The notes beneath the pieces are model-generated. The model was not told the DNA's origin, searched no databases, and saw only the letters and a program-made list of their open reading frames with translations. From sequence record SRR31156797_4420: a stretch of DNA of 34,973 nucleotides; one strand, 5' to 3'. Positions 1,830-34,973 of the stretch are shown here, piece after piece (within the stretch, counting starts at the first letter, position 1; every line of letters starts with the position of its first letter). A program made the translations under genes and the position numbers.

Positions 1830-4091
1830 CTAATTATTCTCTTGTCTAATTAGATTTAATGCTGAGCCAGCATGGAACCATTTTATTTGAATTGGACTAT
1901 AAGTATGTTTTGCTTCTATAGTTTCAGAAGTTCCATCATCATGCTTAATTACCATTTCTACATTCTTTCCGGGAGTAAGTTGATCTATGTTTAGTATATC
2001 AAATGTGTCATTCTCCTTTATTTTGTCGTAATCAGCAGGGTTGGCAAAAGTTAGGGCTAAAACACCTTGCTTTTTAAGATTTGTTTCATGTATTCTGGCA
2101 AATGATCTTACTATAACAGCACGAACTCCCATATGGCGTGGTTCCATTGCAGCATGTTCACGTGATGAACCCTCTCCATAGTTTTCGTCACCAATTACAA
2201 TAGATTGAACTCCTCCATTTTTATAAGCTCTTGCAACACTAGGAGTTTTATCATATTCACCGGTAATTTGATTTTTTGTATTCGGTTTTTCGGTGAAATA
2301 ATTTATTGCTCCCAATAATAAATTATCTGAGATATTGTCTAAATGACCACGAAATCTCAGCCATGGTCCAGCCATAGAAATGTGGTCTGTTGTACATTTT
2401 CCTTTGGCTTTAATTAATATCTTGAGGTCTTTGATATCTTTTGAATTGTTTGGTGCAAATGGTTCAAGTAATTGAAGCCTGTTTGAATCCGGTTTAACAA
2501 TAACATTTACATCACTGGCATCATCTGCCGGAGCTGTAAAACCTAATTCTTTGATATCAAATCCATTAGAAGGAAATTCTTCCCCATTAGGTGGGTCCAG
2601 GTAAACTTCTTCTCCATCTTCATTAATTAATGGATCTTTTAAAGGGTTGAAACTGAGTGAGCCTCCAATAGTAAGTGCTGTTACCATTTCAGGTGATGAA
2701 ACAAATCCATGTGTGTTTGGATTTCCATCGTTTCTTTTGGCAAAATTTCGATTGAAAGAGGTTAAGATGGTGTTTTTACGTTCCGGGTCGTCCGTATGCC
2801 TGTTCCACTGTCCAATACATGGTCCGCACGCATTAGCAAGCACAACTCCACCTATATCTTCAAAATATTGCAGTATTCCGTCGCGTTCAGTGGTATATCG
2901 TATCATTTCAGAGCCAGGAGTCACCATGAATTCTGTTTTAACTTTTAATTTCTTCTCTTTTGCTTGTTTAGCAATTGATGCTGCGCGAGTTAGGTCTTCA
3001 TATGAAGAATTCGTACACGAGCCAATTAAACCAACTTCAATATCAAGAGGGTATTCATTCTCTTTGGCGTTATTCCCTAATTGGCTAATTGGATGAGCTA
3101 AATCAGGAGTAAATGGTCCATTAACCAGCGGTTCCATTTCTGAAAGATTAATCTCAATAACTTTATCGAAATATTTTTCAGGACTGGCATATACATCGGC
3201 ATCACCTGTTAACATATCTTCCATTTGATTAGCCAGTTCGGCAACTTCTTCGCGCTCCGTAATTTTTAAGTAATCACTCATGCGGTTGTCATAACCAAAT
3301 AGGGAAGTGGTTGCACCAATCTCAGCACCCATATTGCAAATTGTTCCTTTTCCCGTACAGCTAATTGAATTAGCTCCTTCTCCAAAATATTCTAAAATAT
3401 ATCCTGTTCCACCTTTTGCTGTTAGAATATCAGCTACTTTAAGTATAACATCTTTTGGTGAGCACCAACCTGAGAGAGAACCGGTTAGTTTAACACCGAT
3501 TAGTTTAGGCATTTTGAGTTCCCAGGGCATATCTGCCATTACATCAACAGCATCAGCTCCTCCAACACCAATAGCTACCATTCCAAGTCCACCTGCATTT
3601 ACTGTGTGTGAGTCGGTACCAATCATCATCCCGCCTGGAAATGCGTAGTTTTCAAGGACTACCTGGTGTATAATTCCTGCACCCGGCTCCCAAAAACCAA
3701 TTCCATATTTTTTAGAAACAGACTTTAAAAAATCGAAAACTTCACTGTTTTGATTCCAGGCTGTAGATAAATCCTTTTCGGCACCTACCTGGGCTTGTAT
3801 CAAATGATCGCAATGAACTGTAGATGGTACGGCCACTTTATCTTTACCTGCATTCATAAATTGGAGTAAGGCCATTTGTGCAGTTGCATCTTGCATAGCT
3901 ACTCTATCCGGGGCAAAGTTTACATAGTCTTCTCCTCTTTTGAATTCTTTAAGTTCCTGTGAACTATGCAGATGGGTGTATAGAATTTTTTCTGCAAGAG
4001 TTAATGGTTTTCCAATTTTTTCGCGTGCATTTTGAAGTTTTTGTTCAAAATTCGCATAGACATCTTTTATCAGTTCTAAATCAAATAACAT
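1830..4091 (-). CDS. acnA: Aconitate hydratase, mitochondrial-like type
   Basis: [60 protein letters not shown] motifs. Confidence 0.95.
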
Positions 4092-19902: not shown

Positions 19903-21351
19903 ATGATTAATCGAAGAATAATTGTTCTCATACTTGGAGTACTCCTTTTAATAGAAGCATTCTTTCTATTTGTTTCAGCCGGAGTATCAATAATATTTCA
20001 GGGTTCAGATACATTAGCGTTTCTTATCTCAGGGGGAGTAACACTTTTATTTGGAAGTGCAGCATACTTTTTGAATCGAAATGCCAATCGAGATATTGGT
20101 AAAAGAGAAGGTTTTTTGATTGTTAGCCTTGTTTGGGTTGTATTTTCTTTATTTGGATGTTTACCTTTTGTTTTAAGTGGCGAAATTCCATCATATACTG
20201 ATGCTTTTTTTGAAACTATATCAGGGTTTACTACCACGGGAGCTTCTATTCTGAATGATATTGAAGGAATGTCAAAAGGATTATTGTTCTGGCGCAGTTT
20301 AACTCAGTGGCTAGGAGGAATGGGAATAATTGTGTTGAGTTTATCTATTCTACCATTTCTGGGTATTGGTGGAATGCAGCTATTTGCTGCTGAAGTTCCG
20401 GGTTTGACACCTGATAAGTTGCATCCAAAAGTAAAGGAAACAGCTAAAAGACTATGGGCTATTTATACAATTTTTACGCTAGCAGAATTTGGTTTACTTA
20501 TTTTTGGAGGAATGGGTTGGTTCGATGCGATTAATCATAGCTTTACGACCATGGCTACAGGTGGTTATTCCACAAAGCAAGCAAGTATTGCACACTTTGA
20601 TTCACCATTTATTCATTATGTTATAATTGTATTCATGTTTATAGCAGGTATGAACTTTTCTCTCTCATATTTTGCCTTACATGGTAAAGTCCGAAAAATA
20701 TGGAAGAATGAGGAATTTAGATATTACTTAGGTTTCGTACTTGTATTTACTCTGCTCATTGGTGTTGGACTTTGGATAACTGAAACATACGGATTTGAAA
20801 AATCATTACGTGATGCTATGTTTCAGGTTGTCTCTATTTTGACTACGACAGGTTTTGCCACAAATGATTATTTACTATGGTCTCCGGCACTGATGTTTGC
20901 CATTTTTATTTTGATGTTTTTTGGAGGATCTTCTGGAAGTACTGGTGGTGGAATTAAAATAGTAAGAATAGTGGTTGTGATTAAGAACAGTTACTATGAA
21001 GTTAAAAGATTAATGCACCCAAAAGCTGTATTACCTGTAAGATTTAATAGAAAAGTAATGACTGACAAGCTGGTTATGAATGTGTTGGCATTTATAGTTT
21101 TTTACTTTATTGTATTTGTACTTGGTGTTGTAATAATGTCGTTATTGGGTCTTGATTTTGAGACCGCTATGGGTGCAGTTGCAGCAAGTTTGGGTAATAT
21201 AGGTCCTGGTATAGGAGATGTGGGTCCATCGGATAATTTTGCTTTTATACCCGATATTGGGAAATGGGTACTTTCATTTTTAATGTTGCTAGGAAGGCTT
21301 GAATTATTTACTGTTTTAGCAATATTAACGCCTGTATTCTGGCGGAAGTAG
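19903..21351 (+). CDS. trkH: Trk system potassium channel subunit
   Basis: SGFTTTGAS, WLGGMG, ATGGYS, TTTGF, GSTGGGIK, GNIGPG, LGRLE. Confidence 0.95.
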   Translation: MINRRIIVLILGVLLLIEAFFLFVSAGVSIIFQGSDTLAFLISGGVTLLFGSAAYFLNRNANRDIGKREGFLIVSLVWVVFSLFGCLPFVLSGEIPSYTDAFFETISGFTTTGASILNDIEGMSKGLLFWRSLTQWLGGMGIIVLSLSILPFLGIGGMQLFAAEVPGLTPDKLHPKVKETAKRLWAIYTIFTLAEFGLLIFGGMGWFDAINHSFTTMATGGYSTKQASIAHFDSPFIHYVIIVFMFIAGMNFSLSYFALHGKVRKIWKNEEFRYYLGFVLVFTLLIGVGLWITETYGFEKSLRDAMFQVVSILTTTGFATNDYLLWSPALMFAIFILMFFGGSSGSTGGGIKIVRIVVVIKNSYYEVKRLMHPKAVLPVRFNRKVMTDKLVMNVLAFIVFYFIVFVLGVVIMSLLGLDFETAMGAVAASLGNIGPGIGDVGPSDNFAFIPDIGKWVLSFLMLLGRLELFTVLAILTPVFWRK

Positions 21352-32620: not shown

Positions 32621-33463
32621 ATGTCAACTAGAAAACCTATTGTAGCCGGCAGATATTATCCTTCAAACGCTGAGGAGACTAAAAAATTAATTGATTATGT
32701 GGAGAAGAAGGAAGTAAACAATCTCACTCATATAGTGGGTGCTGAATTAGATGTACTTGGTGGTGTTGTTCCTCATGCAGGAATTATGTTTTGCGGTTAT
32801 CAAGCGGTACATTTTTTTCATTATATTATTGATCGTGAGTTTGATACAGTTATTATATTGAGTCCAAGTCATACCGGTAGAGGACCTGAAGTTGCCCTTG
32901 ATGGCAATACTGAATGGGAAATCCCCGGTGCTACTTTTCAAACAGATAAAGAATTATTGGAAAGTGGTTTGTTTGAGACTTCTACTGATTCGCAGGTTGG
33001 GGAACATGCGGCAGAAGTAATGCTTCCATATTTGGATTATTTCAGGCCGGATTTAAAGCAAATAGGTGTCATTACTATTAGGAAAGTAAATCATGAAAAT
33101 ACCGAAAAGGTAGCTGAGAAAATTATTGAGTTTGAAAAAAAATCAGGCAAAAAAATATTAGTTATAGCTTCATCAGATTTTAACCACTTTCAGACAGTTG
33201 AGGAGGGTAGAGCTAAGGATGATCTCATATTGGAACCCATTAAAAATAAACAAGAAAAAGAAGTGCTTGAACGAGTTAGAAAATATGACGCTTCTGTGTG
33301 TGGTTATGGTCCTATAGTATCTTTAATGGCTTATGCACGCATGAAAAATCCTGATGCCCGTTTTGGTGTGCTGCGCAGAGGGCACTCTGGAGAAGTAATG
33401 CCATCAGATAGCGTGGTGAATTATATTTCTATGCTCTGTTCGGTGCCGCATAAGAAAGGTTAG
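32621..33463 (+). CDS. amrB: AmmeMemoRadiSam protein B (MEMO1-like)
   Basis: RKPIVAGRYYP, PHAG, PSH, EH, SSDFNH, CGYGP. Confidence 0.92.
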   Translation: MSTRKPIVAGRYYPSNAEETKKLIDYVEKKEVNNLTHIVGAELDVLGGVVPHAGIMFCGYQAVHFFHYIIDREFDTVIILSPSHTGRGPEVALDGNTEWEIPGATFQTDKELLESGLFETSTDSQVGEHAAEVMLPYLDYFRPDLKQIGVITIRKVNHENTEKVAEKIIEFEKKSGKKILVIASSDFNHFQTVEEGRAKDDLILEPIKNKQEKEVLERVRKYDASVCGYGPIVSLMAYARMKNPDARFGVLRRGHSGEVMPSDSVVNYISMLCSVPHKKG

Positions 33464-33639: not shown

Positions 33640-34149
33640 TTAATTCTTGCAATATTTCGCCTTGAAGTTACCATTTATAAAGTTATCATCATTCACATAC
33701 ACATCAATACGACCTTTTATGTAATTTTTCTCTGTAGTATCAATTTCTGTAAATTCGAATGCTCCTTCTACAGCAATTTGGTTCATAGGTCCTTTTGCCG
33801 AATCTTGATCGTATACCATGGTCAAAGTTTGAGCTTTCGTTAGATCGAAACCAACTTTAAGTTGACGCAACCCGGGATCAATATTTTTTGTTGAGAACAT
33901 TACCTTTCCGATCTCATATTTAGGGAAAGAGCATGGATATTGATCATCACGTAAATCAGAAAAGTTGAATGACCATGTAGTGATGGTATCCATTTTTGTA
34001 AAAGTTACTTTACCTATTTTTGATTCCCAGGCTTTGCCACCAATTTTACCTTGCAGGTTTTGATCTTTGAAATTGGGTTCATAATTTCCACCTATGCCAC
34101 CGCAGGATACCAATGACAATGCAGTTAAAAATAATAAAATGTTTTTCAT
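33640..34149 (-). CDS. Hypothetical lipoprotein
   Basis: MKNILLFLTALSLVSC lipobox; beta-rich composition; upstream TACCTTTG box. Confidence 0.82.
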   Translation of the reverse strand: MKNILLFLTALSLVSCGGIGGNYEPNFKDQNLQGKIGGKAWESKIGKVTFTKMDTITTWSFNFSDLRDDQYPCSFPKYEIGKVMFSTKNIDPGLRQLKVGFDLTKAQTLTMVYDQDSAKGPMNQIAVEGAFEFTEIDTTEKNYIKGRIDVYVNDDNFINGNFKAKYCKN

Positions 34150-34196: not shown

Positions 34197-34250
34197 TGAA
34201 ATTTCATTCTGTTTTTTAAAAGAATTTTTCATTTTTAGGTTTTGTACCTG

Positions 34251-34406
34251 GCCATTTCGATTCGCTTCAGGCTAAACCCACTGGTCACTGAGCGTAGTCG
34301 AAGTGCTCAATGGCTTCCGTACATGCTTAAAATGATAGCGCATTGCAAACGCTCCAAAGTTCGTTGAGTAGCTCTTTGGGTAGGATTTGCGCGAATCGAA
34401 ACGAAC
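34251..34406. repeat. REP-like inverted hairpin doublet, copy 1 (A1 34251-34314, B1 34359-34406)
   Basis: Stem-GAG...GAATCGA-stem motif in opposite orientations; homologous to 34760-34898. Confidence 0.85.
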
Positions 34407-34467
34407 GGTCTAATTAGTTTTGCAGAAAAAATTTAATATCTATACTTCGGAAAACAATCGAAAAGTC

Positions 34468-34752
34468 ATGAAATGCTATATGTACATCCTCAAATGTGCT
34501 AATGGACAATATTATACTGGTAGTACAAAAAACCTAGAAAGAAAAATCAACCAACACCAAAATGGAGAGGGAGCAAACTTTACAAGAAAGCATTTGCCTG
34601 TTGAGTTAGTTTATTTTGAAGAATTTGATAGAATCGATCATGCATATTACCGTGAGAAACAGGTTCAGGGATGGAGTCATCAAAAGAAAGAAGCTTTGAT
34701 CAATGGAAAGTTTTCGGAGGTTTGCAAGTTAGCAAAGAAGCGGTTTAAATAA
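34468..34752 (+). CDS. Small stand-alone GIY-YIG nuclease family protein (start reassigned to ATG 34468)
   Basis: YMYIL...YYTGST..L....H..G.GA.FT...P..LVY.E.F...A..RE.Q..GWS..KKEALI. Confidence 0.9.
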   Translation: MKCYMYILKCANGQYYTGSTKNLERKINQHQNGEGANFTRKHLPVELVYFEEFDRIDHAYYREKQVQGWSHQKKEALINGKFSEVCKLAKKRFK

Positions 34753-34759
34753 TTATCCG

Positions 34760-34973
34760 GCCATTTCGATTCCCACTTGCCATACACACATGCCACTCAA
34801 TGGCCTTCGTAGTTACTATTTTTTGAAATTCTAATTTGAAAACGCTCCAAAGTTCTCTGAGTAGCTCTTTGGGATGGTATGTGCGAATCGAAGAGAACGG
34901 CCATTTCGATTCTCTTCTGCCCAAGCGCACTTGCCAATTAATAGCCTGCGTAGTTCCGTTATTTAAACTTTAA
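34760..34973. repeat. REP-like doublet copy 2 (A2 34760-34804, B2 34852-34898) plus degenerate A3 (34900-34945); 140-bp period, may continue past the window
   Basis: GCCATTTCGATTC starts at 34251, 34760 and 34900; AAACGCTCCAAAGTTC and GAGTAGCTCTTTGGG are shared between copies. Confidence 0.85.

Follow-up and report, generated by a model that had tools for sequence, protein, structure and literature searches.

Near one end of SRR31156797_4420, a 34,973-nt stretch of DNA that we refer to as the window, a gene for a small GIY-YIG nuclease lies among five hairpin-forming units (34250-34946). We assign a probability of about 0.5 to the reading that this locus is a pairing like that of repetitive extragenic palindromes (REPs) with REP-associated tyrosine transposases (RAYTs), in which a minimal GIY-YIG nuclease recognizes a hairpin carrying tandem G.A mismatches. 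Each unit consists of a 7-bp stem arm, GAG, a loop of ~23 nt, GAATCGA, and the second stem arm; A units lie on the minus strand and B units on the plus strand. Hairpins of this family have a recurrent anatomy and co-varying stems, are enriched beside the gene, occur dispersed across genomes, and recur at loci labelled as several phyla, and the protein retains its predicted catalytic motifs. Together, these observations point to an undescribed counterpart of REP/RAYT repeat systems. A sequence-only reading of the window had suggested a layout like that of REPs and REP doublets forming hairpins (REPINs), linked to the GIY-YIG gene; the layout and the link are both upheld and extend far beyond the window.

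Hairpins are concentrated beside one clade of GIY-YIG genes

We searched 80 homologous loci with a strict regular expression (GAG, 3-9 nt, CGA, and at least 6/7 stem pairs) and obtained 249 hairpins at 74/80 loci, a few of them probably chance matches. Cores of 11-12 nt were present within 400 bp of the gene in 68/80 loci, and several of the remaining 12 carry long-loop forms or model matches. Hairpin density was 28.6-fold higher beside the gene (190 in 62.6 kb within 400 bp) than in the other 367 kb (39 hairpins), which is the enrichment next to homologues that the sequence-only reading had proposed as a check. Across the 80 loci and the window, R2, a model of the short hairpin form described below, matched 337 times at E<=0.1 (34277-34314 and unit B1 among them), and the matches listed cluster beside the gene.

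The hairpins also show a preferred order. Read 5' to 3', upstream hairpins follow the order (-)(+) in 13 loci, and downstream hairpins, read outward from the gene, do so in 21. The commonest arrangement, (-)(+) gene (-)(+), is that of the window, A1(-) B1(+) gene A2(-) B2(+), with a plus-strand B unit nearest the gene upstream and a minus-strand A unit nearest downstream. The 50 nt after the stop codon contain a minus-strand hairpin in 30 cases; of the 59 loci with any downstream hairpin, 38 have the closest one on the minus strand. Order and orientation are a tendency, not a rule.

If there were no functional link, the hairpins would be generic recombination-prone intergenic repeats, and the gene would simply sit in variable regions where repeats pile up. 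In line with such an explanation, synteny between related loci often stops in the hairpin zone, some replicons are very dense in hairpins (for example, 55 in 395 kb), and several other GIY-YIG subclades are without them: we found no GAG/CGA hairpins at the second GIY-YIG gene of genome G001 (contig C80) or in seven distant subclades (33-44% identity). The density beside the gene, the presence of hairpins at 68-74 of 80 loci under labels of several phyla, and the preferred order and orientation nevertheless make it very improbable, as does the fact that genomes with only tens of copies still have hairpins on both sides of the gene.

Hairpins co-occur with the protein and are dispersed across genomes

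We sampled 121 Bacteroidota genomes, with 55 candidates scored per genome. At least 22 contained an R2 match at E<=1e-4, and 68 contained a match to the window protein at E<=1e-5. The protein was present in 19/22 hairpin-positive genomes versus 49/99 others (p 0.0017), and 10/14 genomes whose best protein match was at E<=1e-19 were hairpin-positive versus 12/107 others (Fisher p 3.4e-6). Among the four apparent exceptions in the group of 14, direct scanning found hairpins beside the gene in G084 and G029, and none in G112 and G096.

Hairpins were also found at loci labelled Ignavibacteriota, Chloroflexota, and Thermodesulfobacteriota, whose proteins nest among those of Bacteroidota in a poorly resolved tree (90 columns, 7 starred branches). 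Three alphaproteobacterial records were examined. In a 395-kb replicon of Sphingomonas parapaucimobilis with 55 R2 matches, the single GIY-YIG gene (41% identity) is bracketed by TGAGCGAAGTCGAAG hairpins, on the plus strand upstream and on the minus strand downstream. Long-loop forms occur in a Methylobacterium record, and a second Sphingomonas record has no hairpins. Mapped onto the protein tree, hairpin core type required 14 changes; 500 shuffles averaged 22.1 and never went below 17. This signal does not prove co-evolution, because relatives share labels.

Within genomes, hairpin copies at other sites occur as singles, inverted doublets, and tandem arrays. A five-genome search with R2 gave at least 40, 25, 4, 21, and 1 matches at E<=0.01. 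All genome-wide hairpin counts are lower bounds, since 55-150 candidates were scored per genome (at most 150 in the five-genome search). Genomes G001-G005 hold seven clade genes with adjacent hairpins. The genome-wide copies anticipated by the sequence-only reading thus number in the tens at other sites, and at least six further contigs of the sequencing run that holds the window contig (run X1) carry copies of the units. That reading had also raised the prospect of a RAYT or TnpA gene elsewhere with these repeats on its flanks; of the 32 Y1_Tnp matches in G001-G005, none lies within 2 kb of a listed hairpin.

A tandem G.A core is held within a co-varying stem

We aligned nine units from the window and its closest relative locus, L001, leaving out A1 because its insert misaligns. 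In this alignment, 95.8% of stem cells are paired, 4/8 pairs are changed on both sides, and 0/500 shuffles scored as high; sliding the partner column reduces pairing to 30.6-62.5%. The two compensatory changes that had been noticed between the stems of B1 and B2 were confirmed. Minimum free energy folds of single window units were no better than those of shuffled sequences (z -2.36 to +1.31), so the case for structure rests on co-variation and not on energy.

Weak matches to R1, the model that scores the window units highly, proved in other loci to be a shorter hairpin beside the gene. This commoner form, 25-26 nt long, follows G-N5-Y GAGC N4-5 YCGA R-N5-C, as in GTTCGTT-GAGCCTGTCGA-AACGAAC and GGTCGTT-GAGCGGAGTCGA-AACGACC, and the B1 stem recurs on short hairpins beside homologous genes at L002, L004, L009, L014, L018, and L055. 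The window units are a lineage-specific long-loop derivative of this widespread hairpin. Other long-loop relatives (at L017 and L048, beside the G025 gene, and in the Methylobacterium record) retain the P1 stem, GAG, and YCGA with a variable co-varying helix between them; no convincing inner pairing was found in the G/T-rich ~23-nt loop of the window units.

In a test blind to pairing, 231 of 680 GAG-N5/6-CGA cores at L002-L080 had at least 6/7 flanking pairs, versus 10 when the 5' arm was displaced. The R2 model comprises 79 distinct hairpins (81 distinct 7/7-pair sequences minus two likely chance matches). As stem pairs were the selection criterion for this alignment, stem pairing in it proves nothing; the apical columns, on which no selection was made, are informative. 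Columns 17/21 are C-G in 70 sequences, G-C in 8, and otherwise in 1, and columns 16/22 are G-U in 55 and G-C in 24. The core therefore consists of a tandem G.A/A.G mismatch, a bulged C, a 2-bp mini-stem, and a small loop, of 2 nt in 11-nt cores and 3 nt in 12-nt cores. The tandem mismatch, which had been singled out as conserved in the window, is kept in the context Y-GA-R across phyla.

The chemistry of this core bears on the nature of the substrate. In DNA, tandem sheared G.A pairs are stable when set in Y-GA-R, and GCGNAGC forms a classic mini-hairpin of very high stability; two-residue loops are tolerated in DNA and generally not in RNA. These features give a moderate hint that the hairpin substrate is DNA.

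Alternatively, the hairpins could act as RNA, that is, as a GA-type motif in untranslated regions or small RNAs, with the GIY-YIG protein acting on RNA or being co-regulated. RNA motifs often show co-varying stems and tandem G.A pairs. No Rfam family reached its gathering score in the window or in 20 loci, and the window gave nothing meaningful at E<=10. Matches to RF02901 (AaHKsRNA41, Aggregatibacter sRNA 41), at L018 482-662 and L006 3234-3377, were far below its gathering score of 97 bits, the scores being 25.8 and 21.4 bits. The RF02901 consensus contains GCUGAGCUUGCCGAAGC and its reverse complement, an inverted doublet of the 11-nt-core hairpin, so that Pasteurellaceae, too, may carry and transcribe members of the repeat family. 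TAnnTTTG-like boxes occur in the window at 34415-34422, between B1 and the gene start, and at 34828-34834, and in L001 at 2872-2878 and 3365-3371; others sit just upstream of B units. They resemble the Bacteroidetes -7 promoter consensus, and some B units may therefore be transcribed. Several properties of the hairpins argue in the other direction, and we find a role as RNA improbable. Relative to the GIY-YIG mRNA, the hairpin closest to the stop codon is in most cases antisense, both orientations are found throughout, and a run of T (at least 4 within 12 nt of the 3' arm) follows only 14/230 hairpins. The co-varying apical pair of the 11-nt core closes a 2-nt loop, which is unfavorable in RNA and known in DNA, and the GCGNAGC and Y-GA-R motifs likewise favor DNA. 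To our knowledge, GIY-YIG enzymes are DNases.

The protein is a single-domain member of the UPF0213 type

The gene (34468-34752, plus strand) encodes a 94-amino-acid protein matching the Pfam GIY-YIG family PF01541 over residues 2-74 (64.1 bits against a cut-off of 22.6, E 1.5e-17). Its relatives from structural genomics are labelled UPF0213: BH0048 (1ZG2; E 2.3e-13, residues 1-81) and EF2693 (1YWL; E 3.2e-9). A single domain of ~90-110 residues similar to these two proteins is the hallmark of UPF0213/COG2827, and the window protein has it. The YIL and YYTGST motifs, R26, and R62-E63-K64-Q65 are retained in at least 90% of 81 aligned proteins. With catalytic residues assigned among the GIY, YIG, Arg, and Glu motifs from work on I-TevI and UvrC, the predicted catalytic motifs are intact. 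The protein contains no separate DNA-binding domain, the only other Pfam match being a weak, overlapping, sub-threshold one to T5orf172, and no NCBIfam or PADLOC model matches it.

Relatives are encoded on 111 stretches of the genome contig collection, that of L001 being 91% identical; phage and plasmid collections yielded only distant relatives (<=43% identity). One paper groups the small GIY-YIG proteins with Slx1, a nuclease selective for structure (PMC7017083), a kinship that fits recognition of structure by the GIY-YIG protein. Searches of open-access and bioRxiv texts gave no repeat partner or substrate for bacterial UPF0213-type members and no link between GIY-YIG genes and hairpin or REP-like repeats.

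Other small GIY-YIG subclades form perfect tandem arrays. Genome G006 has 10 copies with a 349-nt period (L122, G006:C1:1960300-1961400), G005 has 8 at ~410 nt, G078 has ~13 at ~300 nt, and G046 has 5 at 382 nt (L113, G046:C19). The G006 array begins directly after a tRNA-Pro gene, each unit repeating the tRNA 3' end with a terminator-like hairpin and T-run after it, and the G046 array comes after a tRNA-Asn gene. These arrays have the look of cassettes inserted or amplified at the 3' ends of tRNAs.

The gene occupies a junction between B and A units

The sequence-only reading had described plus- and minus-strand units around the gene, and all five units were found, with measured A-to-B spacers of 43 and 46 nt. 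GAATCGAA occurs six times in the window versus 1.13 expected, with five copies within 34256-34912, and 0/100 shuffles reached six. A lone GAATCGAAATGCCA at 20073-20086, in coding-looking sequence and without a matching 5' arm, most likely reflects chance.

Unit A1 (34250-34315, minus strand; AGCCATT-GAG-loop-GAATCGA-AATGGCC, 6/7 stem pairs) is present, but it is not the plain unit that had been described: its loop is enlarged by a nested hairpin of the short type on the opposite strand (34283-34308, plus strand; GGTCACT-GAGCGTAGTCGA-AGTGCTC), which matches the regular expression and is overlain by the R2 match at 34277-34314 (26.6 bits, E 8e-5). Bases 34288-34305, an 18-nt insert that makes this short hairpin just inside GAG, are missing from the L001 counterpart. 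The nested form of A1 also occurs in the G001 copy L092, twice in L050, and as close copies on other run X1 contigs; L007 is nested too. The spacer between A1 and B1 (34316-34358, plus strand) ends in the conserved AAACGCTCCAAAG lead-in to B units, a direct repeat, and the pattern AACGCTCCAAAGTTC matches the window at 34348 and 34841 only. Unit B1 follows (34359-34406, plus strand; GTTCGTT-GAG-loop-GAATCGA-AACGAAC, 7/7 pairs, R1 80.5 bits) and then the gene.

Downstream, unit A2 (34759-34805, minus strand; GGCCATT-GAG-loop-GAATCGA-AATGGCC, 7/7 pairs, R1 76.5 bits) starts 6-7 nt past the stop codon. It is separated from B2 by a spacer (34806-34851, plus strand) that contains TAATTTG and AAACGCTCCAAAG. 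The stem of B2 (34852-34898, plus strand; GTTCTCT-GAG-loop-GAATCGA-AGAGAAC, R1 77.4 bits) carries two compensatory changes relative to that of B1. The similarity of A2 and B2 had been put at 17 of 27 loop positions; we instead count 23/33 between the stems and 29/47 overall, without gaps. The degenerate third A unit, A3 (34899-34946, minus strand; GGCTATT-AAT-loop-GAATCGA-AATGGCC, with AAT instead of GAG, 6/7 pairs, R1 60.2 bits), lies 140 nt from A2, the period that had been reported, and abuts B2 with no spacer.

The window contig stops at 34973, inside the hairpin array, and a 3.6-kb contig of run X1 shows that A3 is followed by another B unit, after four bases more than the window contig has; the hairpin repeats evidently break the assembly at this locus. 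A 235-nt contig from a different metagenome, with a depth of only 2.3, skips the 140-nt A2-B2 unit. Sequencing runs X3 and X5 covered the upstream gene only, and X2 covered part of the GIY-YIG gene at a depth of 2.3.

The closest relative locus, L001, is from genome G001, a bin labelled Salinivirgaceae, and has the layout A1', B1', gene, A2', B2', and an extra B3'. Radical-SAM and Memo-like genes lie upstream in both, so the position of the cassette is shared by the two loci. The Memo-like gene (window 32621-33463, plus strand; PF01875, E 1.1e-41) comes after the radical-SAM gene in L001 (1-1840), and the two look like an AmmeMemoRadiSam-type pair. The next gene differs, being a lipoprotein-like open reading frame in the window (33640-34149, minus strand) and a predicted 289-amino-acid membrane protein in L001. 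The cassette from B1 through B2 is 85.9% identical between the two loci, versus 76.3% for the neighboring genes, and we count this higher identity as evidence for selection. G001 has strong R1 copies on four other contigs (C36, C68, C39, and C198), none of which has a GIY-YIG match.

On C36, a B(+) unit lies directly against an A(-) unit, as do B2 and A3 in the window, and the same abutment is seen on another run X1 contig. The gene therefore sits within a B|A junction of a kind that is closed at other sites. This geometry suits the main rival explanation, in which something else keeps or spreads the hairpins as an independent family, and the GIY-YIG gene, selfish, free-standing, and of the homing type, encodes a protein that cleaves hairpin doublets and is itself copied into the resulting gap; such a gene would for that reason lie between a B(+) and an A(-) unit. 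Other observations fit as well: L073 and L080 have only a ~750-bp cassette in common, with dissimilar flanks; some genomes have 4-10 small GIY-YIG genes; the protein tree places rows labelled as other phyla within those of Bacteroidota; and genome G108, discussed below, has hairpins without the gene. This explanation, too, needs the protein to recognize hairpins. We consider it unlikely, given that the protein is a catalytic domain alone, lacking the DNA-binding domain of known GIY-YIG homing enzymes, that the gene is a single copy at a stable site in many genomes, and that core type tracks the protein tree, a pattern that relatedness alone could produce.

Hairpins turn over at or beside existing copies

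Insertions the size of a hairpin, located at or next to hairpins already present and in some cases nested in them, distinguish related genomes. L035 and L080, for example, are 89% identical over 2.4 kb and are set apart by a 24-nt hairpin that sits within the apex of another, by a 48-nt hairpin-bearing insert next to a further one, and by a 22-nt array unit. In hairpin arrays the element repeated in tandem is the whole unit, "spacers" included (99% identity with a 69-nt period and 88% with an 80-nt period).

Discussion

The reading that we prefer pairs a minimal GIY-YIG nuclease with the hairpin family described above. The 94-amino-acid protein would recognize the folded hairpin through the G.A platform and the apical mini-hairpin, most likely in single-stranded or extruded DNA, and would nick the hairpin there. 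With other copies as templates, repair or replication by the host would then maintain and homogenize the hairpins and occasionally add copies, often inside or beside existing ones. More tentatively, the system may represent a second, independently evolved REP-like class, in which a GIY-YIG nuclease reads the tandem G.A platform and nicks the apex, and templated repair makes the copies; hairpins nested in hairpins would arise because new copies come from such repair.

Binding and cleavage of the hairpin, DNA as opposed to RNA as the substrate, and a role in repeat spread are inferred. Several points weigh against the pairing of nuclease and hairpin. GIY-YIG enzymes hydrolyze DNA, are not known to form a covalent intermediate, and on their own would be incapable of HUH-type strand transfer. 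Hairpins mostly lie at sites with no GIY-YIG gene close by, and their number does not follow that of the genes. G112 (64% identity) and G096 (45%) have no hairpin within ~450 bp of the gene. Genome G108 has at least 17 GAGGCTCTCGA-type hairpins with at least 7 different stems in intergenic spaces (L100-L104), and its only GIY-YIG proteins detected were UvrC and one of 446 amino acids; G034 and G111 resemble it, with 1-2 hairpins. Repeat-flanked cassettes are easily lost from bins, so G108 weakens the link between gene and hairpin without breaking it. The absence of Y1 genes applies to the listed hairpins, and a Y1 gene beside a weaker copy is possible. Phylum labels rest on record titles, as most loci come from metagenome bins. 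Finally, the identical position of the cassette in the window and L001 fits vertical descent, so no mobility of the gene is seen here. The proposal in the sequence-only reading of an analogous selfish or domesticated system is thus partly supported: the layout and the gene link stand, no gene mobility was seen, and G108 has hairpins without the small gene; binding or cutting of the hairpin by the protein, and spreading, are the portions that would follow by inference.

If the pairing is correct, the function-unknown UPF0213 (YhbQ/YazA-type) family would gain its first defined substrate, across several bacterial phyla, and a large family related to the Slx1 nuclease domain would have one that can be tested; the hairpin is small and sharply defined, which makes binding and nicking assays straightforward. 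REP/RAYT has so far been the textbook case of a domesticated nuclease with genome-wide hairpin repeats, and such an arrangement would have arisen more than once, with unrelated chemistry. It would also explain a repeat class that breaks Bacteroidota assemblies, the window itself ending inside an array.

We considered and rejected a number of known classes. The locus is not a clustered regularly interspaced short palindromic repeat (CRISPR) array, as whole units repeat, "spacers" included, and the hairpins are not intrinsic terminators, given how few have a T-run. A type III toxin-antitoxin repeat array was rejected because the hairpins are dispersed genome-wide in both orientations. By eye, a pseudoknot between the CTCCAAAG lead-in and CTTTGGG of the B loops is not kept in L001 B1/B2 or in A units; G-runs are inconsistent among 14 long-type copies, against a G-quadruplex in the long loops; and, judged against the consensus patterns, there is no 3-nt bulge of a kink-turn, no CUGAUGA hammerhead core, and no RYYYAAC/GTTRRRY order of an integron attC site.

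Among known systems, RF02901 shares the inverted doublet of the 11-nt-core hairpin, but scores below its gathering threshold mean that the hairpins are not members. UPF0213-type proteins share the single GIY-YIG domain of ~95 amino acids, whereas here one clade is tied to a specific hairpin and other subclades (33-44% identity) are without it. Homing endonucleases such as I-TevI and the Seg proteins share the catalytic fold and, possibly, the character of a selfish gene at a defined junction; they have a C-terminal DNA-binding domain and long duplex sites, unlike the catalytic domain found here, which stands alone and is chromosomal. Insertion sequences of the IS200/IS605 group (TnpA) likewise combine hairpin-forming ends with an adjoining gene for a small nuclease, and in both cases the substrate is likely to be single-stranded DNA. 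They differ in enzyme class, their ends fold on the same strand whereas the flanking hairpins here are inverted, and the Y1 genes of these genomes are not beside listed hairpins. In layout the locus resembles REP/REPIN-RAYT systems, in which short imperfect palindromes likewise occupy intergenic DNA as singles, inverted doublets, and clusters and flank a small single-copy nuclease gene in inverted orientation. REPs have a conserved GTAG-type tetranucleotide at the hairpin foot; here, no flanking tetranucleotide is conserved (on either side, the most frequent flanking 4-mer is found with no more than 11/230 hairpins) and no Y1 gene lies beside listed hairpins. The RAYT is an HUH Y1 tyrosine enzyme and the protein here a GIY-YIG hydrolase, and the conserved part of the repeat here is in the interior of the hairpin, where the tandem G.A mismatch and the apical mini-stem lie.

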